IMG/VR virus record: IMGVR_UViG_3300042259_000159
Origin: a virus
Strand: one strand, 5' to 3'
DNA length: 64,000 nucleotides
Shown here: positions 8,480-56,322 of the stretch, piece by piece
Numbering within the stretch: the stretch's first letter is position 1
Layout: the number at the start of each line of letters is the position of its first letter
Made by a program: the position numbers and the translations under genes
The notes under the pieces: model-generated
What the model saw: only the letters and a program-made list of their open reading frames with translations
The model's database searches: none
Told to the model about the DNA's origin: nothing

Positions 8480-8481
8480 GA

Positions 8482-9766: not shown

Positions 9767-9783
9767 TTCTATTCTCCTTTGTC

Positions 9784-32493: not shown

Positions 32494-32928
32494 ATGACCG
32501 AAAACAATTGTACAAAGTTTCTTGCACGTGAGAAGTACGAGGAAGCATGGATTTGCATGATAACAGCACTGGAACATATTGAGAGTGCAAAATACCTTAT
32601 CGGGCTTTGTAACAGTGTGCATGTCGGCGATGCAACCTATAACCTGAATCGTGCCACCGATGATATGCAAACGGCACACAGTTTCTACAAAGAATTCTTC
32701 GATACTCTGACGATTGGTTGTGATGACGAGGATGAACAAAATGTTTATCAAAGTGAGGAAGAAATTAACGAGGCACTGTGTGACCTAGACATAATGGGGA
32801 TAGACAGTAAAACTGTATGCATTTCTTGTTTTTATTGTGGGGGTATTTGCCCCAAAGACCCCGTTAGTTGCAATCAAGCAACACATTTTTATAAGTTCCT
32901 TCACAAGGATACAGGAGAGCGAGCATGA
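32494..32928 (+). CDS. hypothetical protein
   Basis: ATG at 32494 (the track begins at a TTG at 32488). Confidence 0.45.
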   Translation: MTENNCTKFLAREKYEEAWICMITALEHIESAKYLIGLCNSVHVGDATYNLNRATDDMQTAHSFYKEFFDTLTIGCDDEDEQNVYQSEEEINEALCDLDIMGIDSKTVCISCFYCGGICPKDPVSCNQATHFYKFLHKDTGERA

Positions 32929-33263
32929 ACAAGTGTCAAGAAGAAATCCTTACTTTTGTTGTTGGGGTGGTTGCGGAGATGGAGCGTGAAACAGGAGCGG
33001 ATATTTTTGTAAGTTACTCTCCCCACGTGTCTTGCATCAATGTTAATTTCCACGCTAATAAGTGGATAAGTGGACATGGATCAGATTTTGATGTGGTGTT
33101 TTATCTTGATTCTGAAGAGTATGATGATATAGCTGAAAGTTTCCTGTCTCTGGAGAATGCTAGGGATTTGATTGAAAAGCATCAACAAGATACCCTGCTT
33201 AGAAAGCAAAAAGCCATTAAGGAACTTGAAGAGCAGCTTAAACGCCTGAAAGAAGAGCAGTAA
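32925..33263 (+). CDS. hypothetical protein
   Basis: ATGA overlap with the upstream gene; followed by a strong terminator. Confidence 0.45.
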   Translation: MNKCQEEILTFVVGVVAEMERETGADIFVSYSPHVSCINVNFHANKWISGHGSDFDVVFYLDSEEYDDIAESFLSLENARDLIEKHQQDTLLRKQKAIKELEEQLKRLKEEQ

Positions 33264-33270
33264 GTATTGA

Positions 33271-33295
33271 GGCCGGAAATAATCCGGCCTTTTTT
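33271..33295 (+). terminator. rho-independent terminator
   Basis: GGCCGGAaataaTCCGGCC followed by TTTTTT. Confidence 0.75.
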
Positions 33296-33377
33296 ACGTC
33301 TAAATCCAGAGGACTTTTTCATTTTAAAAGGTCTAGAGAGGTTTTTCATTTTGGGAGGTCTAAAGAACATTTTCAAT
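33288..33377 (+). repeat. 90-bp direct repeat, copy 1 (identical copy at 37862..37951)
   Basis: CCTTTTTTACGTCTAAATCCAGAGGACTTTTTCATTTTAAAAGGTCTAGAGAGGTTTTTCATTTTGGGAGGTCTAAAGAACATTTTCAAT is present at both sites. Confidence 0.9.
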
Positions 33378-33443
33378 TTACAACCAAAAGTAAAAAGTCT
33401 AGAGAACATTTTTAATTTGAGGTCTAAAGAGGATTTTCATTTT
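33297..33443 (+). repeat. array of five approx 23-bp iterons (G)GTCTA(A/G)AGA-N4-6-TTTT(C/A)ATTT
   Basis: Units start at approx 33297, 33330, 33357, 33397 and 33421. Confidence 0.7.
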
Positions 33444-33456
33444 CAGATTTTTGTAT

Positions 33457-33558
33457 GAAAATGATACTCATTATCACCGATAATGGTCGTTGAAAACGAC
33501 ATTCATTATCAACGATATTGATAATCATTTTCAATGATATTGAGTTTCATTATCAATC
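33457..33558. promoter_or_regulatory. cluster of Fur-box-like sites
   Basis: GAAAATGATACTCATTATC (33457-33475) matches GATAATGATAATCATTATC at 17/19. TGATAATCATTTTCA (33519-33533) matches the 7-1-7 TGATAATNATTATCA at 14/15. Additional CATTATCAA half-sites are present. Confidence 0.4.
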
Positions 33559-33828
33559 TAAATAGTAACTATTACTAATAATAAAAATTGTGCAGGGGCG
33601 GTTTATAATGGATCTTAACCATGTGCCGGAATGCCTTTGATTTTTTCCTCGCTGGCAAAGACAGAATATTAAAAATGCAAACGGCGGTCAAGCGGAAAAT
33701 GAAAAAATATTAAAAATATTTTTTCGGCTTGCCATATCATTATATAGACGCTATATCCATCCCATACCACAGACAATGAATGGAACGCGGAGGAATGGAG
33801 TTTTTATTAAAAATCGTCTGAAAAACAC

Positions 33829-33857
33829 TTGACAGTGATTCCGCTTTGTGTTTAGTT
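33829..33857 (+). promoter_or_regulatory. sigma70-type promoter (TTGACA-N17-TTAGTT)
   Basis: Read directly; precedes 33894..34043. Confidence 0.4.
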
Positions 33858-33893
33858 TTTCACCTACAAGAACACAAAAAAGAGGTAAAGAAA

Positions 33894-34043
33894 ATGCCAA
33901 CCATGTATCAATTTGCTAGTGCAACGCCCTACATCATTATTATTGTATCCATGCTGATCTGTGTCGGGATCGGATCAACCCTTTCCAGTAAAAAAGATAG
34001 TAAGCACGCTTGGAACACAACATACAACGGTAAAAATATCTAG
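33894..34043 (+). CDS. small membrane protein (49 aa)
   Basis: ATG after AGAGGT; hydrophobic YIIIIVSMLICVGIG. Confidence 0.4.
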   Translation: MPTMYQFASATPYIIIIVSMLICVGIGSTLSSKKDSKHAWNTTYNGKNI

Positions 34044-34053
34044 GAGGCTAAAA

Positions 34054-34236
34054 ATGTCTGATTTTCTTACTCTTTTCAAGAGCATTGCGGCGGAGGTACT
34101 GGCCGAAGAGGAAACATCCCGCGCAGCTGCTACTACACTTGACGCTTGGCAATGGGCAACGGATGAAACGGACGGATTGCCCGAACAGGTATGCAAACAT
34201 ATAGGTCTGTGGGAGGAACAGGAAAATGAAAGATAA
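34054..34236 (+). CDS. hypothetical acidic protein
   Basis: ATG after TAGGAGG. Confidence 0.45.
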   Translation: MSDFLTLFKSIAAEVLAEEETSRAAATTLDAWQWATDETDGLPEQVCKHIGLWEEQENER

Positions 34237-34327
34237 GCAGGTTTTGATTGATCTTGTCACGGCTTGCGGATACATTTGCATTCTTTTTGCTATCCTTTAT
34301 ATATGCCTTTTTATACATGCAGCCTAG
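34226..34327 (+). CDS. small membrane peptide (33 aa)
   Basis: ATG after GGAGGAACAGG; CGYICILFAILYICLFI. Confidence 0.3.
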   Translation: MKDKQVLIDLVTACGYICILFAILYICLFIHAA

Positions 34328-34341
34328 TCGGGAGGTGTGAA

Positions 34342-34572
34342 ATGCTTTTTTCAGATTTTTGTAGGGCGCTCCAGTGCACGCCGCTTGCCGGTATCCGGAT
34401 TATTGAGGAGTGGGCAGAAAAGCACAGTACAGTCACCTGTAAAAATATTGTACCGTTCCGGCCTTGGCGGGCTGGACAAATATATGTTAATGAATTGTGC
34501 CCTGAAATATTTGACACCGTATATAAATGGTTTATCGGCAGGGGGGTAGTAAATAATGAAGACAAAGAGTGA
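34342..34572 (+). CDS. hypothetical protein
   Basis: ATG after GGGAGG. Confidence 0.45.
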   Translation: MLFSDFCRALQCTPLAGIRIIEEWAEKHSTVTCKNIVPFRPWRAGQIYVNELCPEIFDTVYKWFIGRGVVNNEDKE

Positions 34573-34843
34573 AAAAGATTTTTTCATGAAAAACTTTTGT
34601 TCCTATGGTTTTACACGCAAAAGCGTTTTGGCACTATATGACGCTGTACAGGAGTGGGAAGGCAAAGAACAGGATACATACAATTTAGACGGTATACACG
34701 GCTACATACAGGAATGGCTTGCAATTAATCCGCCGGAGGTATTAGCATGCAAAATAACGTTACGCCGTGCCCGTGCCGATGATATTAACGCCGATCCAGA
34801 ACAAATAACACTGTGGAGGAGGAATGCCGGTAAAAATACTTAA
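34556..34843 (+). CDS. hypothetical protein
   Basis: ORF track. Confidence 0.45.
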   Translation: MKTKSEKDFFMKNFCSYGFTRKSVLALYDAVQEWEGKEQDTYNLDGIHGYIQEWLAINPPEVLACKITLRRARADDINADPEQITLWRRNAGKNT

Positions 34844-35174
34844 AAATTGCATGGATGGATATAAAGATGCTATATTTTTTACCGAGGAGGATAAAAACGG
34901 CTGGACAGGAAACGAAACATTTAGTATGGAAGCGGAGGAGGTGATTTTCAAAGACTGCTCGCACTTTGTGGATACCATTATAGGCTATTTACCTATTGAT
35001 TTTTGTGAATATGATCAACTAGGCTTTGATTTTTGGCTTACACGCAACGGGCAAAACGCTTTTGCAAAGCGTATAATGCTTTACAATGGTGCAGCAAAAA
35101 TACTAACACAGGTATCTGAAGTTTTTGGCACTGTTTATGCCTACGCTGAAAATGATGAAATATTTTTGAAATAA
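34824..35174 (+). CDS. hypothetical protein
   Basis: ORF track. Confidence 0.45.
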   Translation: MPVKILKNCMDGYKDAIFFTEEDKNGWTGNETFSMEAEEVIFKDCSHFVDTIIGYLPIDFCEYDQLGFDFWLTRNGQNAFAKRIMLYNGAAKILTQVSEVFGTVYAYAENDEIFLK

Positions 35175-35177
35175 CGC

Positions 35178-35206
35178 TTGACAATGCTAAAAGTACAGAT
35201 TAGAAC
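35178..35206 (+). promoter_or_regulatory. sigma70-type promoter (TTGACA-N17-TAGAAC)
   Basis: Read directly. Confidence 0.4.
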
Positions 35207-35232
35207 AAGACAAACAACAGCAAAAAAGGAGC

Positions 35233-35829
35233 ATGGAAATGAAAATTATCGAAGCTTTTGAAATGTGGGAAAATGAAGTGCAGCCCTTCATCGTTGAAAA
35301 ATACGGTGAAAATGACTTTCCGGCACTTGCGGAAAGCTGGAATGACTTCACAGACATTCTTTGCAAGGACGGAGAATTGACGTCCTTGCAGTATCACTAT
35401 GCACCGGCATATGATGAAGGTATGCCCGACGATGATCTGGAGTACATCCTTGACCAGCTTGGCATTGAGTTCCATTGCGAGACCATACCTGCACGTACAG
35501 ACGGGCTTATGTCTGATATGCCTGCCGGTACGCGGCACTTTGAGTGCACATTCTATCAGGGCAACACTCCGGCTCTTGTTGTGCAGTACTCGCAAGGTCC
35601 TGCACACATGGGCATGCCCACTCGCGAGGAGGTTTTGCAAAGCATCATGCAAGATATCGCCTATGCCGATTACGATTTTGAGGAGTTTTGCAACGAAATG
35701 GGCTACGATACTGACAGCAGGACGGCAGAAAGTATCTATAATGCAGTAGTGGAACAAAACGAAATTGTCCAAGCCATGTTTACGGCGGATGAAATTGCCG
35801 ATCTTCAGCAGCTTTTTTACGATTTTTAA
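35233..35829 (+). CDS. hypothetical strongly acidic protein
   Basis: 198 aa, D/E-rich by eye; own promoter. Confidence 0.5.
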   Translation: MEMKIIEAFEMWENEVQPFIVEKYGENDFPALAESWNDFTDILCKDGELTSLQYHYAPAYDEGMPDDDLEYILDQLGIEFHCETIPARTDGLMSDMPAGTRHFECTFYQGNTPALVVQYSQGPAHMGMPTREEVLQSIMQDIAYADYDFEEFCNEMGYDTDSRTAESIYNAVVEQNEIVQAMFTADEIADLQQLFYDF

Positions 35830-35839
35830 CGAATAGTGC

Positions 35840-35868
35840 TTGACAGGTGCTGTATTAACCTATAATAC
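35840..35868 (+). promoter_or_regulatory. sigma70-type promoter (TTGACA ... TATAAT) overlapping inverted repeat CTGTATTAacctaTAATACAG
   Basis: Read directly. Confidence 0.55.
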
Positions 35869-35907
35869 AGTACCTACTCAACCACTATTAAAAACGGAGT
35901 AAAAGCC

Positions 35908-36492
35908 ATGCGTGAAATTATTACGAAAATTTACCGCTTTGAGGAATTGTCTGAAAAATCCCAAGCCCGTGCACTTGAAAAATATCGTGACATTTTTGTG
36001 TCTGATAGCCTTTGGTATGAGGATTTGCTTGAGGAATACAAGGCATGCCTCGAAAAATGTGGGTTCTATGATGCAGAAATACTTTTTTCTGGCTTTTTCT
36101 CGCAAGGGGATGGAGCCTGTTTTGACGCACAACACATTGACGTTGCGGAAGTGCTCAATGCAATAATTATGACTGATCAGGCATGCATTGACCGCGAATT
36201 TATCCGCTTTTACACACTGGCGAATCATGATGCAATCGAGTGCGACATTCTTCAGCGGTCATCCCTTTATGTTCATGAGCATACCAGATACATAGGCGCG
36301 GATAGCCCGTTTTTGACTGAAATGGAAACAAAACGCCTTGAGGAAATTATTGAAAATTTTCGCCTTGATCTGTGCTATACCATATACAACCGCCTTGAGG
36401 CGGAGTATCAATATCAGACCAGTGATGAAGTTTTGCGTGAGTTTTTCATTGATATGGAATGCGAGTTCTATGAAAGCGGGAAGATGGTATAA
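35908..36492 (+). CDS. hypothetical acidic protein
   Basis: ORF track; FSGFFSQGDGACFD motif, family not identified. Confidence 0.5.
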   Translation: MREIITKIYRFEELSEKSQARALEKYRDIFVSDSLWYEDLLEEYKACLEKCGFYDAEILFSGFFSQGDGACFDAQHIDVAEVLNAIIMTDQACIDREFIRFYTLANHDAIECDILQRSSLYVHEHTRYIGADSPFLTEMETKRLEEIIENFRLDLCYTIYNRLEAEYQYQTSDEVLREFFIDMECEFYESGKMV

Positions 36493-36552
36493 CTATCAAA
36501 AATAGTTAGCAATGTTTGAGAGGAAAGAAAAATAATTTTTTATAAAAACCGC

Positions 36553-36581
36553 TTGACAGGTGTAGGGCATATTTGTATGGT
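36553..36581 (+). promoter_or_regulatory. sigma70-type promoter (TTGACA-N17-TATGGT) overlapping inverted repeat GTAGGGCA...TGCCCTAC
   Basis: Read directly. Confidence 0.5.
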
Positions 36582-36614
36582 TGCCCTACAGACAACAAAA
36601 AAGGACGGTTAAAA

Positions 36615-36890
36615 ATGACAAAGCTTGAAAAACAGAACGCTAAAAAATGGGATGAAATTTGCAACCTCCTCCGCGCCCACGGCTATGAAATGGACCGTTA
36701 TGGCAATATGGTCAAGGGCGAAAAGGGTAGTGCCGTGAGATATAAGAAGATGGCTCGCAATGTGCGCAAAGAGCGTGATTTTTATACGGAAGGGTATGAC
36801 GGGAAAATGGAAAGGCTTTGGCGTAAAGTGTGGTCCATACCGCTTAAGCAGCTTGCCATTGTGGATGGAAAAATAACAAAAAATAAGTGA
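36615..36890 (+). CDS. hypothetical basic protein
   Basis: ATG after AAGGACGG. Confidence 0.45.
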   Translation: MTKLEKQNAKKWDEICNLLRAHGYEMDRYGNMVKGEKGSAVRYKKMARNVRKERDFYTEGYDGKMERLWRKVWSIPLKQLAIVDGKITKNK

Positions 36891-36978
36891 TTTGGTGCAT
36901 TGCGGGGAATCCTGAAAATAATCCTGACAGGATTCCCTGCCCCAGCGTGTCAAAAAACAAAACAGATTGGAGGATACA

Positions 36979-37206
36979 ATGATAGATGAAAATATCCGCT
37001 TCATTAGCATAGAACACGATTATCAGAATAGTGCGGTTCGAAGCTGGTTTAATGTTGACGGTCAGGATTGGTGTATTCACCTTTCCACTATGACAGGGGA
37101 GCGAACTATGCTTGACAGTGAGGGCTATCCAGTTTATCCGCGCAATAGACGTGAAGATGCTATCTGGCGTAGGCTTTTGCAACACGTATATAGGGAGCAG
37201 GTATGA
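36979..37206 (+). CDS. hypothetical protein
   Basis: ATG after GGAGGA. Confidence 0.45.
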   Translation: MIDENIRFISIEHDYQNSAVRSWFNVDGQDWCIHLSTMTGERTMLDSEGYPVYPRNRREDAIWRRLLQHVYREQV

Positions 37207-37460
37207 AAAATATAAAAGCAGTGGATAGAAAAAAGGACCTTTCCACAGGAACCATTGAGTTGATTCATTGGTTTCAGGATCAAGCGCACTGGCAAAAGGA
37301 TCCGTGTTTCAATAGGATGTGCATTCATGTCGCTGATTGCCTTGAGTGTGGGACAATTACACCGATGGAGGGTTATGATATACAGGCATATGTACATCTA
37401 TACGGATTATTCCCGGAGTGGCCGAAGGCGCGGGCGTCAAACTACTCACATACCATCTAG
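37203..37460 (+). CDS. hypothetical protein
   Basis: ATGA overlap with the upstream gene. Confidence 0.45.
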   Translation: MKNIKAVDRKKDLSTGTIELIHWFQDQAHWQKDPCFNRMCIHVADCLECGTITPMEGYDIQAYVHLYGLFPEWPKARASNYSHTI

Positions 37461-37478
37461 TACACCAAGGAGCATATT

Positions 37479-37808
37479 ATGACCACAGTGAAAAGATTAC
37501 AGAAGCTGGTTGAAGACATTGCAAGAGACATTGAAAACGGCGTAATTGATTGCGAACCCGTGGACGGTGAAGAGCCTACGGCATTTGATTACCTACAAAA
37601 CGCACTTGCTATTGAGTACATTGTCAGCAGCAGGAAAGAATATCTTGGCGCACGCATCATGGTTGCATGTGGCGGACCTGATATCTGGATTAATACACGC
37701 ACAAACACTGTGGAAGGCTACTGGGGCTCTAATGCAGCCGTGGCCATGGCCTCGGCATTGTTCCGCCGTCACGGAAAAGCGCTGGAGGAATTATACTTGT
37801 GTAGTTAG
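37479..37808 (+). CDS. hypothetical protein
   Basis: ATG after AAGGAG. Confidence 0.45.
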   Translation: MTTVKRLQKLVEDIARDIENGVIDCEPVDGEEPTAFDYLQNALAIEYIVSSRKEYLGARIMVACGGPDIWINTRTNTVEGYWGSNAAVAMASALFRRHGKALEELYLCS

Positions 37809-37861
37809 GGGCTACGTTAAAATTAGCAAAAACTTCAAAAAAGGCGTTGACAAGGTTGACG

Positions 37862-37951
37862 CCTTTTTTACGTCTAAATCCAGAGGACTTTTTCATTTTA
37901 AAAGGTCTAGAGAGGTTTTTCATTTTGGGAGGTCTAAAGAACATTTTCAAT
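37862..37951 (+). repeat. 90-bp direct repeat, copy 2
   Basis: See 33288..33377; it also follows a terminator hairpin. Confidence 0.9.
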
Positions 37952-38087
37952 CCGATGCAGCCTTTGCCGCGTATAGCCGTGACCGCATTGGTTTGGATGG
38001 AGAACTGGAGGGATTGTATGCGTGTAAGCCTCCGCTAACACACATAAGGCTGCTTACAGTAAAAATAGAAAAACTATTCAAAACCGC

Positions 38088-38116
38088 TTGACAAAACCGG
38101 GCGGTTCTTCTATTGT
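38088..38116 (+). promoter_or_regulatory. composite hairpin / sigma70 promoter, second copy (AAACCGCttgacaaaaccgGGCGGTT; TTGACA-N17-TATTGT)
   Basis: About 45 nt near-identical to 31610..31655. Confidence 0.55.
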
Positions 38117-38157
38117 GTTCCTAACGAACACAAACACTCAACAAAGAGAGGTAAAGA

Positions 38158-38768: not shown

Positions 38769-39136
38769 TATGCCTACTAGCGCCGTTATCAGGGTAACGG
38801 CAGGAATCAGCGGGAAACATGTATATAAGGAAAGAAAAACTAAAAGATAACCTAGGACATACGTAAGAGGTAAAAAGCATTAGAAGGCGCATAAGGGGCA
38901 CTAAATATGCCCCTTATTTGTTTGTGTGTCTAATAGGCTTTGTGTGTGCAAAAAGGCTTGTATAGCGGCTTTATCATGGAAGCCGCGCATACAGGCAAGG
39001 CTTTTAGCACTATATATGCACAGATACGGTGTATCCGTGAATATGGTTAATAATCTCTAAATACCTGCCCGAAAGATATGAAATATCTTGAGGGGGGAAA
39101 CACACAATAATCCTCCTGTCAAGTGTTACTGATTTT

Positions 39137-39273
39137 GAATATCATTATCAATGGAGATATTGTCATTGAACAGCATAACGCTGTTATACACACGGATCAA
39201 TTAATTCCCATCGATCAGCATTTCGCTGGTGCTGCTGGAATCAACACTTGTTGAGATAATGACATCCATTATC
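39137..39273. promoter_or_regulatory. Fur-box-like sites in the non-coding region
   Basis: GATAATGACATCCATTATC (39255-39273) matches the 19-mer at 16/19. GAATATCATTATCAAT lies at 39137-39152. Confidence 0.35.
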
Positions 39274-39302
39274 AATGCTGTTCAATGGCCGTTTTCAACG
39301 GC

Positions 39303-39322
39303 AATGTTTCACGTGAAACATT
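39303..39322. repeat. perfect 20-bp palindrome AATGTTTCACGTGAAACATT
   Basis: Self-complementary by inspection; flanked by hairpin GCCGTTttcAACGGC (39288-39302). Confidence 0.9.
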
Positions 39323-39526
39323 CCTGATCAGAATACTGGCAAGAAACATTGATAACGACAATCTTTATCAACGTATCTGGCGATCCTTTCAGGTTAACAC
39401 AAATCTGGAAGAAAGTAAAGTAATATAAATTTTAATAAGGGGTTGACATCTTCCTGATATTTTGATATTATAGAAAGAGAGGCGTATGGGGAGGGGGGAG
39501 GCCTTAAGCACCGGTATACTTATATA

Positions 39527-39576
39527 CCAAGTACCCCTATAGGTTCATGCCGGATATTTGCCCAAGTACCCCTATA
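39527..39576 (+). repeat. direct repeat CCAAGTACCCCTATA x2
   Basis: Copies at 39527-39541 and 39562-39576. A related TATACCAAGTA occurs at approx 20171. Confidence 0.8.
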
Positions 39577-39967
39577 ATGGTATACCGATATACTTATACA
39601 CACCATATCTGCACACAGAAGGTATAGGGGGATATTTCCTGCTAGGATATTTCCACACAAAAAGGGGGAGTATATGGGAGGGATATTCCTGAAGGGAATA
39701 GATATTTTAGACAGGTATATATATATTATCTCTATGCTATATATACTCTATATATGTATATTCCATATATACATATTTCTTCTTATTCTATTCTTCTATT
39801 TCTACTAATGAGATATATACATATTAGGACAGCATATGCATGTGTCTACATCACATGTAGACACATATATACACATTCCCTTTCCTAACGGACAGCCGTA
39901 TTATAACATATTTTTTGGATTTTGTCAAGAACTTTTTTGTATTTCACATGGAAAATATTTCATACCG

Positions 39968-40187: not shown

Positions 40188-40418
40188 CTACGTGATCGAG
40201 GCAGAGCACCTGTGGTCGAGGTAGAACACCTTGCCAATGCAGAAGGTATGCCCTTCCTTCATAATGCGGAATGTTGCTTGCATGGGCACATTTACCTCCA
40301 CTACCCACTGGATGCCTTGTTCAGGCCAGAAACTCAAGCTGCCGTTAAACTCAAAAGGCTTTGCTTCACAACCCTTCACAGCGGTATTTATCTCTTCCAT
40401 ACCATCTTCACCAGTCAT
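40188..40418 (-). CDS. hypothetical protein
   Basis: ATGA overlap with the methyltransferase stop. Confidence 0.4.
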   Translation of the reverse strand: MTGEDGMEEINTAVKGCEAKPFEFNGSLSFWPEQGIQWVVEVNVPMQATFRIMKEGHTFCIGKVFYLDHRCSASIT

Positions 40419-41269
40419 GACTCCACGGAATCAAGCAAACTTGGCTGCTTATTTCTACGGCTAATAGCCTCGGCGTCTAGCCGCTTAGCGATTATCTCGC
40501 AGTACTTTTCTTCGCGCTCTATCAGGATCCAGCGGCGGCTAGCACGCTCGGCTGCAACTGCTGTTGTGCCGCTGCCCGCGCAGAAATCAAGCACTGTTTC
40601 ACCTTCGTTGGTGTAGGTTTTGATGAGGTATTCCATTAGGGCAACAGGTTTTTGGGTTGGATGGAGTGCTTCAGAGTCTTGGCTAAATTTAATAACACCG
40701 CGAGGGTAGTTTGTAAATTCTTGTTTATAGCTTTCAGATTTGGTCAGATCATTATGTACACTTGTCCTATCCCCATTCTCTTTTAGAGAATCCTTCCGTG
40801 TCTTTGTCCCCGTGTTTTTTACCACCTTGTCCACCTTTACAAGCCCCTGCGCGTTATAAGTTGGCTGCTTGCGGTAGAATACAAGCACGTCCTCAAATCC
40901 TTTTAGCGGCATCCTTTTGGCATTGGGGAAATTTGTTGGACGACCTTTCTCCCAGACCCATGTGTATTTAAGCATTTTGAGATTACTAGCCCCCAAAAGA
41001 CTTGTAAACGGCTGGCTAGCAGTCATAACAACAGCCCCACTAGGCTTGATAGCCCGCTTCAACTGCTCCCACATTGGCTCTAGCGGAATAATGCTATCCC
41101 ACTTACACGCCGTCATTCCAATTCAGCCGTAGGGTGGATCGCATAACACCAGGTCTATAGAGCCGTCTGGGATATATTTCATAACCTCAAGACAATCTCC
41201 ATGAACCAACGTGTTAGGCAATACGCACCCTACGTGCTGTATCTCCTTTTCGTTAGTTATAGTAAACAT
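40415..41269 (-). pseudogene. N6/N4 DNA methyltransferase (beta class) with an in-frame TGA after DPPYG
   Basis: ATG 41269 ... VLCDPPYG-TGA(41125..41123)-IGMTACKWD ... HPTQKP ... FCAGSGTT, all in one frame. The track ORF 40415..41116 is the downstream part. Confidence 0.7.
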
Positions 41270-41811
41270 TAAATAAAATACTCCTGTATGTTTAGTTTCA
41301 AATTATTCCAATCTGTTTGTGTCATATCATTTTTGCACCTATTTTCAAACCACGACAAAAACTGCAAGTTTTCTATGTCATTAGTTCCTCCTTTTGCTTT
41401 TGGTGTTATGTGGTCTATTGATGGCTTTTTGTATTTTTCTTTACCGCCGCTAACCCATCTTTCATAAATCCTATTAAATTGATCGTCATAGTAAAACCTA
41501 CTTATATAACTTTTGTACCATTCAGTTGATATGTCCCATCTGCCTGAACGATTCGTAATTACATCATTTAACAGCTTTAATTTATCAAAATCCTTAAACT
41601 GCATTAACCAATCAGTCGTTACGTCAAACCTCAAGTGTGTTGCCATGTTGTTATAATTGCGCTCAATATCACAATTAAATTTTTTAACACCTCTTAGATT
41701 CTTGGGCTTTCTGGTCTGTACCCCATTTCTCTTCAGGATTCTTGATATTAGTTTGTGATTAGTACCTAGCTTATCCGCTATAGAGCGCATTGAATCGCCA
41801 CTTTTGTACAA
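41269..41811 (-). CDS. HNH endonuclease with N-terminal HTH
   Basis: SIDHITPKAKGGTNDIENLQFLSWFENRCKND. Its stop overlaps the methyltransferase ATG (TAATG). Confidence 0.75.
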   Translation of the reverse strand: MYKSGDSMRSIADKLGTNHKLISRILKRNGVQTRKPKNLRGVKKFNCDIERNYNNMATHLRFDVTTDWLMQFKDFDKLKLLNDVITNRSGRWDISTEWYKSYISRFYYDDQFNRIYERWVSGGKEKYKKPSIDHITPKAKGGTNDIENLQFLSWFENRCKNDMTQTDWNNLKLNIQEYFI

Positions 41812-41816
41812 TTCAA

Positions 41817-42218
41817 CTAATGGATAAATAGGTAATCCCCAATCTCCTCGGGGCGTTTAGCATTTTTTACCTGCTCATTATAAGGAAGAACCAAGAGTTC
41901 ACCAACAGCATCCCTTTTGGATACAGGCAGTTTTTCTTCCAGCCGTTTTTGCATAGACTCGGAGTCCATTCCCATCAACAGCTCAAAAATCTCCAAATCT
42001 TTTAGACGATTATCGGTGGCAGGTAGAAGCGATCCAAGTATACAGGCTTTATTGAGTATCAGGGGTTTGCGCCCTTTCCAGTAACTGCCAAGAGCGGTCA
42101 ATGTTTTGCTCTGAACAGCGCTCTGTTCTTTAAAACTTTCAGCGGATATTTTTTGCACTGGAAAGAGATGTTCAATCAGTGCCGGTTTATCTTTCCATTC
42201 GAACGGTTTCAGTGCCAT
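41817..42218 (-). CDS. DUF1156-like N-terminal fragment (domain normally at the N-terminus of large DNA methylases)
   Basis: From MALKPFEWKDK: LIEHLFPVQKISAESFKEQ...YWKGRKPLILNKACILGSLLP resembles DUF1156. Only about 133 aa; it ends 5 nt before the HNH gene. Confidence 0.4.
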   Translation of the reverse strand: MALKPFEWKDKPALIEHLFPVQKISAESFKEQSAVQSKTLTALGSYWKGRKPLILNKACILGSLLPATDNRLKDLEIFELLMGMDSESMQKRLEEKLPVSKRDAVGELLVLPYNEQVKNAKRPEEIGDYLFIH

Positions 42219-42448
42219 CAGATATCTCCCTTTTCTATAAATCCAACAAGAGGAAGGACTTCTTGTTTTGCTTGTATATTGTACATCTGGCAAAGATCAG
42301 TAAGATTGTCAGAAGATGTAACCCACTTACCAACCTGATTTTTGACATCGAAAAAGGTAACACCCTTATTGTGATTGCATGGTAAGAGGTTTTCAAAAAG
42401 ATTATGGCACCCCCTTAAGGAGGGCTTTTGTATCATAACACCTTCCAC
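42218..42448 (-). CDS. hypothetical protein
   Basis: ORF track. Confidence 0.3.
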   Translation of the reverse strand: MEGVMIQKPSLRGCHNLFENLLPCNHNKGVTFFDVKNQVGKWVTSSDNLTDLCQMYNIQAKQEVLPLVGFIEKGDI

Positions 42449-42592: not shown

Positions 42593-43417
42593 TTAGATGA
42601 TTGCTTTATTCTCATGTGCACTCTCAATGCGCCGCTTGGCAATGTTGAAATAGCCTTGGTCTAGCTCAATACCGATAAAGCAGCGGTTCAGCAGCTTGGC
42701 CATCTTGCCAGTCGTACCGCTGCCCATGAAGGGGTCGAAAATCGTATCGCCTTCGTTTGACCAGCTTGATATATGTCTTTGCGCTAATTTTTCAGGAAAA
42801 ATTGCAGGGTGCTTAAACGCCTCACTATCCATTGTTGAGTGACCTTTACCTGTCGTTATGTACCATATATTTCCATCTATCTTATCTAATCCAACTGGTT
42901 TCCTTTTCTTGCCACTTCTGGCACTGCGCATTTTTTCAGTTGTAGATGAAAAATAACTGTTCTGACGTGAAGTTTCTTTTTCCGGATATTTTGTCGGAAC
43001 TCGAATGGCGTTAAAGGTTTTAGGTCTACCCTTACTAAAAACAAACATATACTCAAAATCTTGTTCGTATCTGTTGTGGTTTTTCGGTAGTGCGTTTTTA
43101 TGGTATATCATCGTATCATGCAGCCGGAAGCCGCACTCCATAGCCCACAATGCTTGCTTAAAGCTAGTACCTGTCTCACTACCCTTAATCGTGGCGTCAC
43201 CAACAACCCAAACAACAACCCCACCATCTTTAGTAACACGGTATAGGTCTTTAATAACCGCCTTCCAAACATGCTCTCCCCACAACGCATTATTGCCGTT
43301 ATAAGTGCGCAGATTATCGTATGGTGGGCTTGTTACCGTTAAATCAACAATACCATCAGGTATTTCTTTCATCCGCTCAAGGCAATCGCCTAGCATCAGC
43401 TTAATCATCATCACCAC
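42593..43417 (-). CDS. N6/N4 DNA methyltransferase (SPPY type)
   Basis: LTVTSPPYDN, HPAIFPEKL, FDPFMGSGTTG. Confidence 0.8.
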   Translation of the reverse strand: MVMMIKLMLGDCLERMKEIPDGIVDLTVTSPPYDNLRTYNGNNALWGEHVWKAVIKDLYRVTKDGGVVVWVVGDATIKGSETGTSFKQALWAMECGFRLHDTMIYHKNALPKNHNRYEQDFEYMFVFSKGRPKTFNAIRVPTKYPEKETSRQNSYFSSTTEKMRSARSGKKRKPVGLDKIDGNIWYITTGKGHSTMDSEAFKHPAIFPEKLAQRHISSWSNEGDTIFDPFMGSGTTGKMAKLLNRCFIGIELDQGYFNIAKRRIESAHENKAII

Positions 43418-48848: not shown

Positions 48849-51800
48849 CTAAATGCTTTTATCTACAAACTTTCTCTGTGGAAAATCAAATTCCCGCCTT
48901 GTTTTATTCCAAGCTTTTACGGGTGTAAAAAACCCAACAACCCTTGTCAGCTGTGTACTTATATCTTCCGAACATATGGGGCATGTACTGAAGGAACCCA
49001 TAGAGACATGGGAGTTGATACACTCAGAGTATACGGTATTAATGGCAAAATGTTCACATCCACAACCCAAAGCAAAACAGATAATTTTCTTGGCCTGCTC
49101 TCTTGTCAGCCTCTGCCCGACAGTGGCATGAACAATCCCCCCGCCTGTTAGGTTTTTAGTATATTCTCCGTCAATTCTGAGCCTGTCCCACAGAGATGCC
49201 TCTTCCCACAAAGGAACAAACTGGTTTGCATAGAGAGGGTATTCTATAAAAGTATCGCCGTGAATGATCTTATCTGCGCTGCAAACTTTTACAGCCATAC
49301 TCTCTGCTGGGATTTGCTCAATGTTGAAGACATATCCTGCGTTCTTCTTGGTATACAATCTAGCTTTTCTGTTAAGAAATGTCAAGATCTTTTTCTTCAA
49401 ATCCCCCTCAACACCGAACCTTTGTTTAAGAACCTTTTCACACTCGTAAAGACCAAGAATACCAAACGTTGAAAAGAGCCTGTTGAGGTCTATCCACCCA
49501 CGCGTTATAAAAGGCTGAAGACCTATTTGTTCAAGGACATGAATCAAGACCTTATGAGCAATCAGAATATCTTTAGCAGCCTCTACACGGTACGTGTATA
49601 TTTTCCAAAAATCATCAATACTCTCGGCCTCAATTGCCATCTTGTTGAAATTAAGAGTAACAACTCTATGGCTCCCGATGCTGGAAAGAACACCGGCACC
49701 GAAAGAATTGGAGGTGGATGCCACATCTAACATCTCTTCATCATTGATCAATCGGCAACAGCTAGCGATCTTTGTGCTCTCAGATGTGAAAATATTGTAG
49801 CGCGAAATGTCTCTATTAAGAAATATTTCCAAACTCTCTTCGTCTGCAAGGATGTAATCATCGCCGTCCTTAGTTTTTGAAATGTTCATCGTGCAAACAG
49901 GGAACCTGTAAGGCATCCCGTTATTTGAGGGATCTCCTTTATCAAAGATGTCTAGGAATATTTCCTGCAATTCAAAAACATAGTCAACACACTCTTCTAT
50001 ATCTACAACACCACCATCTGAAAACATCCACAAAAGATGTTCCTTTATGATGTACCTGAGTTTGTGTTTATCAAACACCGATACATTGGTAAAGGGACTC
50101 TCAACTCCGTCACGACTCAAATGGTTTACGCTGTGAATAAGCTGTTGAAACTCGTTTTCTATCTCTTTCCTCACAGCCTTATCGTTTTTAAGCACATCAA
50201 GGGGAACCTTATTCTTTATCATGAGAAGGTGAGCAACATCTATAAATACAGTACCTATGGCTAGAGCACCAGCAACATGCGATGACATTTGGTGGATTGT
50301 CTCACACAGGGCGGCAATATAACTATTAACTCTTTTTGCCGGTTTAGAGGGCAATACTCCAAAAGTTCTTCCTTCTGTAATGAGATTTGTTGCGTTTAAA
50401 GAATAACAATTATGTTGCACCATTCCGTTTGCATAAAAACGGCCCGTTGCTGTTGTCAAATCATATACGTCTTGAAGCTCCTCTCTAAGCTTTCTTGTAC
50501 TAGGAATGTCTTCAAGATTAAACCTGATGATTTTTACAACCCTGTTGCTTTCGCCCTTGGTGTTTGCTTTTTCATTATACTTATCATAGTCTTCTTTATG
50601 CATCTTCATCTTATCAGAAAGATCAACCATCTTATTCGTACTTGACGGGACAAAGGAAAGGGCATAAATCGAATTAGAAATATCACTCCCTTTTATCCTT
50701 TTTCTAAGGCATCGAATACCTTCAATGCCTCTAAGGACGTCATAAAGTGTGTTTATTACTGCCATAGACTGCAAACAAATCTCCACCCTGCCATTCTTTT
50801 TGTAGGTATATCCGTCCGCGTCTACAAGCCCCGCAACAAGTGCCTCTACAGAATCATTTGTCCAAGAGAGGATGTTCTTAGGAAGAACCTTTGTGAAGCT
50901 ATTTTCTTTGTTCCCGAAACCAAAAAAGGCACTTACAAGAAAATTCATATCATAAGAAGACCAATTAATCTGTCTCTCGACTTTATCACTGGGCTTAAAA
51001 AGATTCGCATCAGGAAACAAGTCTTTTATGATACTATAAATTCTTGAGTTATCAATATCGTTTTGATAAACACTGCAAAGCGTTCCCCCTCTTGTAAATC
51101 TGAAAGAGCCTTTTATGTCCTTACCGTTCATTACGCCATCATCAACACAATACCCTTCAAAGTTCCCATCACCAAGCATAAAGCCAAGAAGGTAGGCCAG
51201 CTTTTCTGGAACAATTATTGTTTTTTCCACGGAGGGCAAACAAGTCTCTGTCAAAACAGCATCCCCAACAGAAAGTTCTGAGGCTATTTTTTCAGTTCCA
51301 TCTTCCATATAGATTGGGTGGTTGTCTGTTACCAAAGCAAAGTGCCCTGCCTCTGTCTGATACAAAGAGAATCCTGTATCCGTTTTATGCTTGATAATAC
51401 GTTGTACAGCAACCCATCCATTGTTTGTATCCCAAACCTCTATATTAACTTTTTCACTCACATTGCAGGCCAACTTACCGGAACGACCTTTTGCGGTGTT
51501 CTTGTTAGTGATGTTCGCACTCACATTATTACGCAGCATTGCTGTTGTAATCTCTAGATCTCTTGTAAGGCCTTTTGTGTTAATTTCCTCATGCGTACCC
51601 CTATTTTCGGAGTGTATTGCAAACATATTGAAAAGCTTTTTAAGAGGAATACAAATAATCTCTCCGTTAATTCTGACAAAAACAGGCGTGTTTCCATAAT
51701 ACGAATATGGAAGGTTTAGCTTCGTGCTGTCGGAGATGGGAAGACTGAAATCCAACATTTCTCCTATAAGCCTTTTAGCCCTCTTCTTGCCGTAGAGTTC

Positions 51801-52184
51801 CTTCATAACACGGTAGAGGAAATCGTACCCTGCAATTTTTTTCTGGGGGGCACTTGCCTCACTCTGTATTCCGGCAATTGTCTTCTCATTCTTATTAGCA
51901 TTGTCATCAATAGAGACATCATTAATGTTTGCATTTAATTGTTTTTGAAACATCTTGAGAAAGTCTGTATTGTCCTGCGAAAGACCATGCAGACGCATAA
52001 GTTTTTCAGCTTTTGTATCAATCTCTTCTTGAGAAAGGGTTGTTTTACGAGAAAGATTCCTTTTCAAAGCCTTAAGCATCTGTTTCCGTGTGTATTCAAT
52101 CTCAGCATCATTTGTAAAAGATGAAGAAAAACCTTTAGCTATGCTATTCAAAGCAGTAAACTCCTTCTTTTGTAAGTTTAACAT
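48849..52184 (-). CDS. nrdD: anaerobic ribonucleoside-triphosphate reductase (class III), intein-containing
   Basis: C-terminal CPICS Zn site and glycyl-radical region TRVVGFFTPVKAWN. Likely start MLNLQKKEF at 52184, overlapping the nrdG 3' end. A 432-aa insert carries intein blocks. Confidence 0.8.
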   Translation of the reverse strand: MLNLQKKEFTALNSIAKGFSSSFTNDAEIEYTRKQMLKALKRNLSRKTTLSQEEIDTKAEKLMRLHGLSQDNTDFLKMFQKQLNANINDVSIDDNANKNEKTIAGIQSEASAPQKKIAGYDFLYRVMKELYGKKRAKRLIGEMLDFSLPISDSTKLNLPYSYYGNTPVFVRINGEIICIPLKKLFNMFAIHSENRGTHEEINTKGLTRDLEITTAMLRNNVSANITNKNTAKGRSGKLACNVSEKVNIEVWDTNNGWVAVQRIIKHKTDTGFSLYQTEAGHFALVTDNHPIYMEDGTEKIASELSVGDAVLTETCLPSVEKTIIVPEKLAYLLGFMLGDGNFEGYCVDDGVMNGKDIKGSFRFTRGGTLCSVYQNDIDNSRIYSIIKDLFPDANLFKPSDKVERQINWSSYDMNFLVSAFFGFGNKENSFTKVLPKNILSWTNDSVEALVAGLVDADGYTYKKNGRVEICLQSMAVINTLYDVLRGIEGIRCLRKRIKGSDISNSIYALSFVPSSTNKMVDLSDKMKMHKEDYDKYNEKANTKGESNRVVKIIRFNLEDIPSTRKLREELQDVYDLTTATGRFYANGMVQHNCYSLNATNLITEGRTFGVLPSKPAKRVNSYIAALCETIHQMSSHVAGALAIGTVFIDVAHLLMIKNKVPLDVLKNDKAVRKEIENEFQQLIHSVNHLSRDGVESPFTNVSVFDKHKLRYIIKEHLLWMFSDGGVVDIEECVDYVFELQEIFLDIFDKGDPSNNGMPYRFPVCTMNISKTKDGDDYILADEESLEIFLNRDISRYNIFTSESTKIASCCRLINDEEMLDVASTSNSFGAGVLSSIGSHRVVTLNFNKMAIEAESIDDFWKIYTYRVEAAKDILIAHKVLIHVLEQIGLQPFITRGWIDLNRLFSTFGILGLYECEKVLKQRFGVEGDLKKKILTFLNRKARLYTKKNAGYVFNIEQIPAESMAVKVCSADKIIHGDTFIEYPLYANQFVPLWEEASLWDRLRIDGEYTKNLTGGGIVHATVGQRLTREQAKKIICFALGCGCEHFAINTVYSECINSHVSMGSFSTCPICSEDISTQLTRVVGFFTPVKAWNKTRREFDFPQRKFVDKSI
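50409..51704 (-). mobile_element. intein with LAGLIDADG homing endonuclease domain inside NrdD
   Basis: Block A SYYGNTPVFV (Ser1), block B LVTDNHPIY, LAGLIDADG motifs LAYLLGFMLGDGNF and LVAGLVDADGYTY, C-terminal FYANGMVQHN followed by extein Cys (CYSLN). Confidence 0.8.
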
Positions 52185-52659
52185 AATTATTATTATAAAG
52201 TTCTTGGTTAGACGAACCAAGTACGAGTTTTGTCCTTTGCCCTTTTGTTGTATCTGACTGGTGCAGTTCTTTTATATACTCTCCTGTTTTTATAAATTTG
52301 AAACCGTTAAGATTAAGGTATTTAACAGTGTCAATATCGTATCCAGTATAAATACATATGTTAAAACACCCACCGTATTGTTCTAAGAACTGTGCTGTAA
52401 ACCCTCTGTTGCAGGAGGCTAGCGGATCTCCACCAAGAAGTACAATATTATTTGTGCGGTATTTTAAGGTCTCCTGTTTACAATGGTTGTAGAAGTCTTC
52501 AATGGAAAATTCCACACCACCCTGATATTCAGGGTTTTGCAGGGAGGGGTTATGACACCCCTTACAGGAAAAATCACACCCACACATAAAAAGACTTACT
52601 GCCCACCCATCCTTTGAGGGGTAGTCTGTAAATGTCATCTCAGAACCTGCAAATCTCAT
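52144..52659 (-). CDS. nrdG: anaerobic RNR activating enzyme (radical SAM)
   Basis: CGCDFSCKGCHNP (CxxxCxxC cluster). Confidence 0.8.
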   Translation of the reverse strand: MRFAGSEMTFTDYPSKDGWAVSLFMCGCDFSCKGCHNPSLQNPEYQGGVEFSIEDFYNHCKQETLKYRTNNIVLLGGDPLASCNRGFTAQFLEQYGGCFNICIYTGYDIDTVKYLNLNGFKFIKTGEYIKELHQSDTTKGQRTKLVLGSSNQELYNNNYVKLTKEGVYCFE

Positions 52660-55122: not shown

Positions 55123-55206
55123 TGGTAGGAGAAGAGAGATTCGAACTCTCAAGGAATAATCCGTCGAGGCTTAAACTCGATGTGTTTACCATTTCACCAT
55201 TCTCCC
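55123..55206 (-). tRNA. tRNA-Leu (anticodon UAA), type II with long variable arm, CCA encoded
   Basis: GGGAGAA/TTCTCCT acceptor, anticodon arm TCGAG-TTTAAGC-CTCGA, T-arm GAGAG-TTCGAAT-CTCTC. Confidence 0.75.
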
Positions 55207-55245
55207 GTATTTTTTATCTACCATTCCGCCATTCCCGCATTTATT

Positions 55246-55323
55246 TGGTACCCACTGTGAGATTCGAACCCACACTAATCAGTTTCTAAGACTGATGCCT
55301 CTGCCAAGTTGGGCTATACCAGT
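55246..55323 (-). tRNA. chimeric / possibly defective tRNA (anticodon UAG, short variable loop)
   Basis: Good D, anticodon (TCAGT-CTTAGAA-ACTGA) and T arms. However, 5' acceptor ACTGGTA pairs poorly with the local 3' strand AGTGGGT and well with TGCCAGT at 54617..54646. Confidence 0.45.
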
Positions 55324-55581
55324 ATTATGCTTATTATTTTATTTTGAAAGGCCATATGTATACACATATATATATATACATATATATATGTATAGAGCAA
55401 CCAAAATGGTTAAATAAAAAGGTGTTTTGTGGAGACACCAAACTCCTCCAGTTTTAGTGATCTGGAAACAATAAGCGGCGCAGGTGCTCTTTAAAACACG
55501 TGCTACCAAGCGTATAAATTGTCTAGGGGATTTCACCAAACACATTATGTTATTGGAGGGATCTTTCCCTAGACTCAGTAA

Positions 55582-55654
55582 AGCTCCTGACAGGACTTGA
55601 ACCCGCAACCGGCTGATTACAAATCAGCTGCTCTGCCAGTTGAGCTACAGGAGC
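55582..55654 (-). tRNA. tRNA-Thr (anticodon UGU), no encoded CCA
   Basis: GCTCCTG/CAGGAGC acceptor, GCTGA-TTTGTAA-TCAGC. Confidence 0.8.
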
Positions 55655-55658
55655 AGAA

Positions 55659-55730
55659 CAGAGGGAGAAGGATTCGAACCTTCGAATGACGGGACCAAAA
55701 CCCGTTGCCTTACCGCTTGGCTACCCCTCT
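55659..55730 (-). tRNA. tRNA-Gln (anticodon UUG), no encoded CCA
   Basis: ACGGG-TTTTGGT-CCCGT anticodon arm, T-arm GAAGG-TTCGAAT-CCTTC. Confidence 0.75.
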
Positions 55731-55738
55731 AAATTTTT

Positions 55739-55815
55739 TGGCTCCGGCGGCAGGATTTGAACCTACATTCGCAATGGTTAACAGCCATTTGCCTTACCAA
55801 TTCGGCGACACCGGA
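55739..55815 (-). tRNA. tRNA-Asn (anticodon GUU), CCA encoded
   Basis: AATGG-CTGTTAA-CCATT, TTCAAAT T-loop, acceptor TCCGGTG/CGCCGGA. Confidence 0.75.
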
Positions 55816-55860
55816 ATGAACTTTTTATTTGTTATCAGCATTGTTTTGCTTTATTTTAAA

Positions 55861-55939
55861 TGGTCTCGGTGATTAGATTTGAACTAATGATTATTCCTGC
55901 TCCCAAAGCAGGTGCCATACCAAGCTAGGCGACACCGAG
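55861..55939 (-). tRNA. tRNA-Pro (anticodon UGG), CCA encoded
   Basis: CCTGC-TTTGGGA-GCAGG, T-arm ATTAG-TTCAAAT-CTAAT, acceptor CTCGGTG/CACCGAG. The variable region is slightly long. Confidence 0.65.
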
Positions 55940-56293: not shown

Positions 56294-56322
56294 AACCTAT
56301 CAATTTTAAGGGTTCTTGTCAA
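56294..56322 (-). promoter_or_regulatory. sigma70-type promoter (TTGACA-N17-TAGGTT, then GTATTTAGC) facing the tRNA cluster
   Basis: The minus strand has the same architecture as the promoters at 26289 and 32237. Confidence 0.5.

Follow-up and report, generated by a model that had tools for sequence, protein, structure and literature searches.

The stretch of DNA analysed here, referred to as the window, comprises 64,000 nucleotides (nt) of IMG/VR virus record IMGVR_UViG_3300042259_000159 and belongs to a large, virulent-type phage. Our main subject is a 630-nt intergenic region (33264-33894) that carries a tandem array of sites closely matching the binding site of the bacterial iron regulator Fur, with additional sites of this kind around 39 kb and at the terminase operon. 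The array and its surroundings are laid out as follows; scores in bits refer to an E. coli-derived Fur matrix and fractions such as 17/19 to the 19-bp Fur consensus, both of which are described below:

33269-33296 (+): intrinsic terminator of the upstream 112-aa gene (32925-33263), with a 9-bp stem including six GC pairs and then a T run; left edge of the intergenic region
33305-33445 (+): five ~25-nt repeats of the form GGTCTArAGArnaTTTTyCATTT, each with TTTTCATTTT (six matches in the window versus 0.09 expected)
33457-33478 (+): unit 1, GAAAATGATACTCATTATCACC, 24.1 bits, 17/19 to the consensus
33479-33491 (+): truncated 13-nt unit GATAATGGTCGTT, a complete 22-nt unit at this place in the relatives L083 and L086
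33492-33513 (+): unit 2, GAAAACGACATTCATTATCAAC, 17.3 bits
33514-33535 (+): unit 3, GATATTGATAATCATTTTCAAT, 22.3 bits, with a 10.6-bit partner offset by 6 bp at 33520
33536-33557 (+): unit 4, GATATTGAGTTTCATTATCAAT, 18.9 bits
33556-33589 (no strand): AT-rich stretch of 88% A+T adjoining the array, kept in relatives
33592-33602 (+): G-rich element GCAGGGGCGGT just past the array; an identical 11-mer follows the array of phage DE16, and phage phi92 has the version GCAGGGGTGGT
33829-33857 (+): candidate promoter TTGACA-17 nt-TTAGTT with TGTG before the -10 element

The core of the array (33457-33557) consists of four tandem 22-nt units of the form GAwAwyGAnnnTCATTATCAAy that start at 33457, 33492, 33514 and 33536. 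Units 2 to 4 are spaced by exactly 22 nt, and the truncated unit in between widens the step from unit 1 to unit 2 to 35 nt. An initial annotation of this DNA had singled out GAAAATGATACTCATTATC (33457-33475) as a 17/19 match to the consensus and TGATAATCATTTTCA (33519-33533, a 7-1-7 element within unit 3) as a 14/15 match, and we found both at their places exactly as described. The extra half-sites that it had reported are present, too, but they are not separate elements and instead form parts of the four regular units. Another 7-1-7 palindrome, TAGTAACTATTACTA, lies within the AT-rich stretch at 33563-33577. On the minus strand, the TTTTCATTTT motif of the upstream ~25-nt repeats reads as two Fur-type hexamers (GAAAAT-GAAAA), and these repeats could thus be weak or partial Fur sites.

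Beyond the array, the match of the G-rich element to DE16 has an E value of 0.28 when taken alone and is suggestive solely through the shared position. It is followed by ~230 nt of conserved non-coding DNA up to the candidate promoter, which lies ~270 nt from the end of the array and precedes a block of small orphan genes with the first ATG at 33895. This promoter was recognised by eye on the model of those at 38088, 61773 and 62052, was missed by the promoter scan and is kept in the relatives L084 and L086, while the terminator at the left edge of the region is kept in L083-L088. Two other promoter guesses, TATAAT at 33604-33609 and a leftward TTGACC at 33691-33686, were discarded as weak only.

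The sites outside the main array form two groups, each of which is found in the vicinity of a strong promoter:

39131-39152 (+): dispersed site GATTTTGAATATCATTATCAAT, 18.5 bits (39131-39149, 16/19)
39255-39276 (+): dispersed site GATAATGACATCCATTATCAAT, 19.9 bits (39255-39273, 16/19)
39351-39372 (+): dispersed site GATAACGACAATCTTTATCAAC, 15.9 bits (39351-39369, 16/19)
39443-39471 (+): strong sigma-70-type promoter TTGACA-17 nt-TATTAT, 11/12 matches, with TG
62052-62080 (+): perfect consensus promoter of the terminase operon, 12/12 matches, with extended -10
62100-62118 and 62106-62124 (no strand): two overlapping Fur-type boxes 6 bp apart, 16.2 and 21.2 bits (62106-62124, 16/19)

The three sites at 39 kb are located 70-310 nt upstream of the promoter at 39443-39471. 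Two of them correspond to copies that had already been proposed near 39137-39152 and 39255-39273 and prove to be 16/19 matches; the third is absent from the initial annotation. The pair at 62100/62106 lies at approximately +14 to +38 of its promoter, the sole operator-like position among all sites, and is followed by an operon composed of a 106-aa gene (62220-62540) and the intron-split large terminase. A site at 62103-62125 below the packaging promoter had been called weak, which its score of 21.2 bits and its 16.2-bit partner 6 bp upstream contradict. This pair is unchanged in 97%-identical relatives, where it is uninformative because the whole region is likewise identical.

We compared the window to the 19-bp Fur consensus GATAATGATAATCATTATC, which can be read as two overlapping 7-1-7 sites, and found seven 19-mers with no more than three mismatches where 0.01 are expected from 200 dinucleotide shuffles. 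Local shuffling of the AT-rich segment 33440-33570 (131 nt) reproduced its four sites in none of 5000 trials, so that the clustering goes far beyond chance. For a graded measure, we built a symmetric 19-bp matrix from 14 Fur-regulated promoter regions of E. coli MG1655 (fepA-fes, entS, entC, fhuA, cirA, fiu, fecA, fecI, exbB, tonB, fhuE, fhuF, ryhB and sufA), consensus-seeded and with one site per region, which returns the textbook Fur consensus. The phage sites score 15.9-24.1 bits as compared to 9-22 bits for the training sites (4-20 with leave-one-out). In the window, nine positions reach at least 16 bits versus 0.34 expected, so that the scores exceed those of an AT-rich background. The phage sites deviate from the consensus at one to four positions, genuine E. 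coli sites at two to eight, and the majority base of the aligned units is the textbook consensus itself. By consensus match and matrix score, the window sites are therefore Fur boxes, level with or above the best genuine E. coli sites.

Genuine Fur clusters consist of overlapping sites that are 3 or 6 bp apart (Chen et al. 2007, PMC2189734). Offsets of 6 bp are clear at 62100/62106, weak at 33514/33520 and also found in phi92 and DE16, whereas the boxes of the main array follow one another every 22 nt without overlap. The Vibrio Fur consensus AATGATAATAATTATCATT (PMC7536154) is compatible with the window sites, and the nearest matches to the phage's family A DNA polymerase PolA come from vibriophages. 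A strong left-right asymmetry of the units, first taken as evidence against a symmetric dimer, faded once the relatives' units had been added (24 consensus mismatches in left halves and 16 in right halves by hand count). The consensus sequences of FNR, IHF, ArgR, LuxR/HapR and DnaA do not fit the sites, with DnaA scanned formally and the others compared by eye. One of the nine matrix matches, at 63335 (18.0 bits), lies inside a terminase coding exon (MENDNDF) and is probably a chance hit.

The gene upstream of the array is shared with six metagenomic contigs at 86-96% identity, and comparison to these close relatives reveals near-identical flanks around arrays that differ among themselves. L083 carries four units and L086 and L087 carry five, all exactly 22 nt apart, and their units vary in sequence but fit the motif, with some reaching 18/19 matches to the consensus (GATAATGATATTCATTATC, GATAATGATAATCATTCTC). 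Reshuffled arrays that stay on motif between near-identical flanks imply a fast turnover by unit shuffling during which the motif is maintained, and this sequence pattern is that of maintenance by selection. In the more distant relative L090 (84% identity in the flanking protein), the whole segment corresponding to 32925-38157 is replaced by tRNA genes, and no Fur-type site was found within its 14 kb. The array module is thus an accessory or movable feature and not a fixed part of the core genome. More precisely, at 6254-9776 of L090 the module with the array and ~15 small genes is swapped for an inverted homologue of the window's tRNA cluster (55261-56295), a mosaic exchange with conserved genes on either side.

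Arrays of this type are not restricted to the immediate relatives of the window phage. We searched for two-box stretches of the pattern AATCATTNTCA-N(4-26)-TGANAATCATT, counted non-overlapping sites of at least 15 bits as strong and looked for loci with at least four strong sites within 300 nt. The pattern yielded at least 120 stretches each in IMG/VR viral contigs and in 185,579 bacterial and archaeal genomes; 30 of the 120 viral loci listed contain at least four strong sites as opposed to a single one of the 120 listed from cellular genomes. A composition-matched permuted palindrome used as control gave 14 stretches in IMG/VR, none of which (0/14) has four strong sites. Among the matches listed, the largest viral array comprises eight sites, and 117 of 120 bacterial loci, from taxa such as Bacillus, Staphylococcus, Paenibacillus, Klebsiella, SAR86 and Pelagibacter, show the normal operator pattern of no more than two strong sites. 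The sole listed bacterial locus with five strong sites in 300 nt (L248, 7204-7390, of the Bacillota metagenome-assembled genome JAMOAB010000035.1) may be a prophage or plasmid. Going by the matches listed, arrays with many consensus Fur boxes are therefore a trait of viral DNA.

In these at least 30 other viral contigs, the array is often found upstream of terS-terL. When we grouped by similarity the proteins whose genes lie within 3 kb of 32 arrays, only three separate clusters (of 7, 4 and 3 loci) were common to unrelated array loci, and in each of them the members recognised by Pfam are large terminases while the remaining ones have no Pfam match. A large terminase gene lies within 3 kb of the array at 14 of the 32 loci. 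As a rule, the array sits between divergent genes ahead of the terS-terL operon, and where an operon promoter is recognisable, it starts 90-230 nt beyond the array; some other arrays adjoin a small terminase or HNH gene. The proteins at the terS position of array phages are spread over different PHROG families or match none of them. The variants GAGAAT, GCAAAT, ATTCTC and ATTTGC seen in phage arrays occur in real E. coli Fur sites, too. In addition, most Fur-type arrays of other phages (L166, L133, L129, L160, L220, L208 and L176) seem to have a run of at least four G or C a few tens of nucleotides away at most (e.g., gggaggggcctaccccc, ttgggtgggggtag and gaggggggtgc), which may echo GCAGGGGCGGT of the window.

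A sensitive BLAST search with the array of L083 led to phi92-like coliphages, i.e., ~50 Justusliebigvirus records and one Serratia phage. The intergenic region at 136.55-137.37 kb of phi92 contains three long repeats with GAAAATGAAAA inside them and then five palindromes followed by GCGCAGGGGTGG. These palindromes of the form TGA(T/G)AATCATT(A/C)TCA score 15-21.5 bits, several of them in 6-bp-offset pairs, and muut likewise has five sites. The 343-bp direct terminal repeat of phi92 carries a site of 23.6 bits together with a trio of 14.6, 22.0 and 13.9 bits spaced by 6 bp. Phapecoctavirus DE16 shares this layout, with GAAAATGAAAA repeats, sites of 19.4 and 21.8 bits and then GCGCAGGGGCGGT. The host of phi92 and DE16 is E. 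coli. The window phage has almost no detectable protein similarity to phi92, and homology of the whole module between the two found little support, with just short matches (11-12 nt, E 0.07-0.44) outside the motif. Their shared motif may reflect common descent or convergence. Matches of Staphylococcus phages to the array were dismissed as noise (26-36 nt, mostly within DNA polymerase coding sequence).

The array is separated from a strong leftward promoter (in phi92 TTGACA-17 nt-TATACT, L108 3372-3344) by ~250 nt that are near-identical in phi92 (L108 3123-3375) and DE16 (L112 2899-3147), members of two genera, a conservation far above what is expected for spacer DNA. This stretch may be a non-coding RNA gene, and it has neither an Rfam match nor a convincing fold. 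A Fur-controlled small RNA like RyhB beside the array was considered and rejected, as neither strand of the window or phi92 gave an Rfam match or a fold beating shuffled sequence.

What are these arrays for? The quality of the sites, the anatomy and variable copy number of the arrays, their recurrence in phages and their rarity in bacterial genomes are established, and we give a probability of roughly 45% to the reading that the repeats are real, selected, high-affinity sites for host Fur that serve as a multi-copy sink or platform. Host Fur is the likely ligand under this reading because the sites have the consensus and tolerated variants known from genuine Fur sites and scores at the top of the natural range, because the motif recurs in phages without common proteins (whose hosts probably differ and share a canonical Fur box), and because no phage-encoded partner is common to the arrays or recognisable near them. 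A tblastn search with E. coli and V. cholerae Fur found no Fur homologue within the window. From the location of the array away from promoters and its multi-copy form, which is viral and not bacterial, we infer a sink or platform instead of a classical operator. The initial annotation had spoken of Fur-box-like operators for iron-responsive control of phage genes or for titration of the host repressor; the likeness to Fur boxes stands, operator position applies to nothing but the 62100/62106 pair, and the form of the array fits titration or a structural platform better than iron-responsive repression. Its third option, a phage regulator that has adopted a similar palindrome, is taken up below as the main rival.

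In mechanistic terms, host Fur-Fe2+ would bind as two overlapping dimers per 19-bp box. The 22-nt head-to-tail units would be two helical turns apart and therefore expose all boxes on the same face of the DNA, so that the array with its flanking hexamer repeats and AT-rich stretch might load ~8-10 Fur dimers per genome copy. As the genome replicates, the arrays would tie up much of the Fur present in the cell, and the terminase operon could sense the remaining free Fur through the box pair at +14 to +38 of its promoter. An E. coli cell contains roughly 5,000-10,000 Fur monomers, and ~9 boxes with two dimers each on at least 100 genome copies would amount to the same order of magnitude. In the Fur titration assay (FURTA), many boxes on a high-copy replicon lower the level of free Fur and derepress the regulon; phage arrays would act alike, yet FURTA is a laboratory cloning artefact whereas these arrays are natural, conserved and virus-borne. 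Somewhat more tentatively, we suggest that the arrays represent a widespread, hitherto undescribed non-coding element by which virulent phages load host Fur onto their DNA, be it as a sink that reprogrammes iron metabolism or times late genes through copy number, or as an architectural factor at packaging sites and genome ends in the way that lambda employs IHF. Possible examples are this marine phage, coliphages of the phi92-like and phAPEC8-like groups, and dozens of phages known from uncultivated material. Full-text searches of the literature turned up no account of phage genomes with Fur-box arrays.

Several observations weigh against host Fur loading. A sink would be useful to the phage only if host transcription continues, and relatives such as ICP1 are reported to degrade the host chromosome (bioRxiv 10.1101/671271). 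No Fur-type array was found in 27-76 kb of ICP1 (49 kb, including the mapped theta origin area) or in the 42 kb scanned of vibriophage 277E43-1, and the lack of the module at the syntenic place of L090 means that the element is dispensable or movable. The spacing of boxes in other phages ranges from 17 to 52 nt and is not uniformly phased. The proximity to terS-terL at many loci and the boxes in the terminal repeat of phi92 would fit a role in packaging or at genome ends equally well or better, and tandem, same-orientation, helically phased repeats beside an AT-rich stretch have the classic look of iterons. Finally, in a Keio collection screen the V5-like phage LL12 proved to require lipopolysaccharide genes only and not fur (PMC7229145), though arrays were not looked for in LL12.

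The simplest alternative, that the sites are chance products of AT-rich, low-complexity intergenic DNA, might draw on the 37% GC content at 32-34 kb and the AT-richness of the Fur consensus itself, but it is ruled out by the shuffles, the matrix counts and the permuted control pattern, while the units moreover keep their form across the reshuffled arrays of relatives; we consider its probability negligible. It is also unlikely that the sites are ordinary operators through which host Fur represses phage promoters under plentiful iron, i.e., those of the genes after 33895, of the 39443 transcript and of the terminase operon. Site quality equal to that of real operators, the location of the 62100/62106 pair just downstream of a perfect promoter, and known cases of host-regulated phage promoters such as the Fur box at stx1 or the Pho boxes of cyanophages would be in line with this idea. 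However, neither the main array nor any of the 39-kb sites overlaps a candidate promoter, the closest of these being 70-310 nt downstream, the same geometry is seen elsewhere with arrays 90-230 nt upstream of perfect promoters (L144, L205 and L166), and bacterial Fur promoters need one or two boxes and not four to eight. Repressing packaging in healthy, iron-replete cells would furthermore have no obvious benefit for a virulent phage. Compared to known systems, the phage sites share consensus and hexamer logic with gamma-proteobacterial Fur boxes such as those of iucA (aerobactin), fhuF, ryhB and entS, score in the upper validated range, and match the pairs 6 bp apart of such promoters at 62100/62106 and in phi92, but the array differs from them by its four to five complete, non-overlapping boxes in 22-nt tandem away from -35/-10 elements and by its presence in a virulent phage. 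Likewise, the Fur box of stx1 and the Pho boxes of cyanophage pstS and phoA are sites of a host regulator in phage DNA as seen here, but each is a single operator at the promoter of one accessory gene, unlike the multi-copy arrays.

The main rival, to which we assign a somewhat lower probability, is that the ligand is a phage-encoded dimeric DNA-binding protein, with the repeats being iterons of a replication origin or terminase sites of the pac/cosB type and the dispersed copies serving control, so that the likeness to Fur boxes would be convergence on an AT-rich palindrome or deliberate mimicry. Four to five head-to-tail, same-orientation 22-nt units with a copy number that varies in close relatives, next to an 88% A+T stretch and a second family of repeats, would be easily understood in this way, and semi-palindromic direct repeats are typical of iterons (PMC7145576). 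The restriction of arrays to viral DNA among the matches listed, their location upstream of terS-terL or by an HNH gene in other phages, the boxes in the phi92 terminal repeat and the pair in the window's terminase-operon leader argue in the same direction; overall, a phage protein explains the phased tandem form, the AT-rich stretch and the association with terS-terL and terminal repeats more naturally than host Fur does. The lambda origin has four 19-bp dyad-symmetric repeats and an AT-rich region, and the iterons of P1, F and R6K are spaced by ~22 bp. Like these and the origins of PLE satellites with RepA_N, the window array combines phased, same-orientation semi-palindromes of 19-22 nt with an AT-rich neighbour and a second, dispersed cluster, here at a distance of 5.6 kb, as in the control loci of the P1 and F plasmids. 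At least three phased direct repeats of 17-22 nt are thus present as expected for iterons, and an AT-rich neighbour by composition only.

Unlike at iteron origins, however, we found no cognate initiator gene and no DnaA box: Pfam and PHROG scans of ~40 neighbouring proteins, most of them orphans that might include an unrecognised initiator, detected no helix-turn-helix, Rep, initiator-like or other DNA-binding family, and no DnaA box within one mismatch is present in 33200-33900. The motif is identical to the site of a host repressor, a relative lacks the module at the syntenic place, and nothing similar exists in the mapped theta origin region of ICP1. For phage rV5, no origin could be defined in the genome paper (PMC3606486). 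It is also difficult to reconcile with a phage protein that consensus and Fur box agree at virtually all positions, and this in phages with almost no common proteins, and that the tolerated variants occur in real Fur sites as well, while TerL is the sole protein family common to array neighbourhoods and the families at the terS position differ. Regarding packaging sites, lambda cosB places R sites for TerS together with a site for host IHF between the genome end and terS-terL, and many phage arrays resemble it by lying in the terS-terL leader or a terminal repeat, with IHF as precedent for a host factor. A location suited to pac or cosB is seen for the 62.1-kb pair, at the 14 of 32 other loci with a nearby terminase and for the phi92 terminal repeat, but unlike cosB the window's main array at 33.5 kb is 28 kb away from the terminase genes. 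Host-factor and packaging ideas could be combined by analogy if Fur were an accessory protein at packaging sites like IHF at lambda cosB, and nothing in the literature searched links Fur to packaging. As to its type, the element seems to be a form of a known kind of site that has so far gone undescribed.

Iron homeostasis has Fur as its master regulator, and scarce iron restricts both the growth of bacteria and the output of phages, above all in the sea. If host Fur is indeed loaded onto these arrays, they would constitute a new, DNA-only route by which a virus senses or rewires a core host regulon without any protein effector, and they would account for conserved 'orphan' repeats between the genes of well-studied therapeutic coliphages, among them phi92 and BASEL-type Justusliebigvirus. 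If the binder is a phage protein with Fur specificity instead, this would be a case of regulator mimicry and help to locate the origins or packaging sites of this group of phages. Direct experiments are feasible, since close phi92 relatives can be grown on E. coli K-12, where fur mutants, purified Fur, Fur titration strains and ChIP protocols are available.

The window is identical to IMG/VR contig 3300042267_000152 over every part compared. It encodes a gp4-like primase-helicase, a family A DNA polymerase, a CCA-adding enzyme, a DNA ligase, the anaerobic ribonucleotide reductase NrdD with an intein, a large terminase split by introns, and tRNA genes. The PolA protein is most similar to those of vibriophages 277E43-1, PWH3a-P1 and ICP1 at only 38-40% identity. 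A megablast search of the array region against GenBank phages gave no close homologues, and the flanking genes are carried only by near-identical metagenomic relatives. A metagenome scan with the flank GTGCAGGGGCGGTTTATAATG returned no matches, though small JGI contigs do hold GTGCAGGGGCGGTTTATAATG. The GC skew in the window tracks the direction of transcription.

Several minor observations concern the surroundings of the sites. The first three GGTCTA-type repeats upstream of the array recur at 37868-37953 after another terminator, with no full sites beside that copy. More broadly, an 85-nt segment composed of a T run, ACGTCTAAATCCAGAGGAC and the three repeats is duplicated right after two different terminator hairpins (33280-33380 and 37868-37953) and looks like a portable post-terminator element. 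Among the three sites at 39 kb lie a perfect 20-bp palindrome, AATGTTTCACGTGAAACATT (39303-39322), and a perfect 13-nt inverted repeat, CATTGAACAGCAT / ATGCTGTTCAATG (39164-39176 and 39275-39287), both of which may be sites for another protein. The adjacent stretch 39478-39900 is non-coding, rich in TATATAC, GGGGG, GTACCCCTATA and GGATATTTCC repeats, and flanked by convergent near-perfect promoters, i.e., the one at 39443-39471 (+) and another at 39928-39900 (-; 12/12). It is similar in style to the DNA beside the terminal repeat of phi92 (L110 400-560) and may lie near the physical end of the genome.

The large terminase gene, with exons including 63080-63358 and ~63595-63727, is broken by two group I introns at 63359-63571 and 63728-63997 (Rfam RF00028, 76-77 bits). 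Similar sequence (gtaacgactagttc) occurs at 62600-63050, which separates the first terminase exon from the 106-aa gene and may be a third intron. The 1123-aa NrdD protein (48849-52220, -) contains an intein-like insertion at residues 258-604 (Pfam Intein_splicing). A DNA methyltransferase is apparently split at 40415-42293 (-) into an N-terminal DUF1156 part (41817-42293) and an N6_N4_Mtase part (40415-41116), which are separated by an HNH/helix-turn-helix endonuclease gene (41269-41811), and a second N6_N4 methylase is encoded at 42593-43417. Eight tRNA genes form two clusters at 55123-55939 and 58023-58202 (-), with the Leu(TAA)/Leu(TAG) pair present twice.

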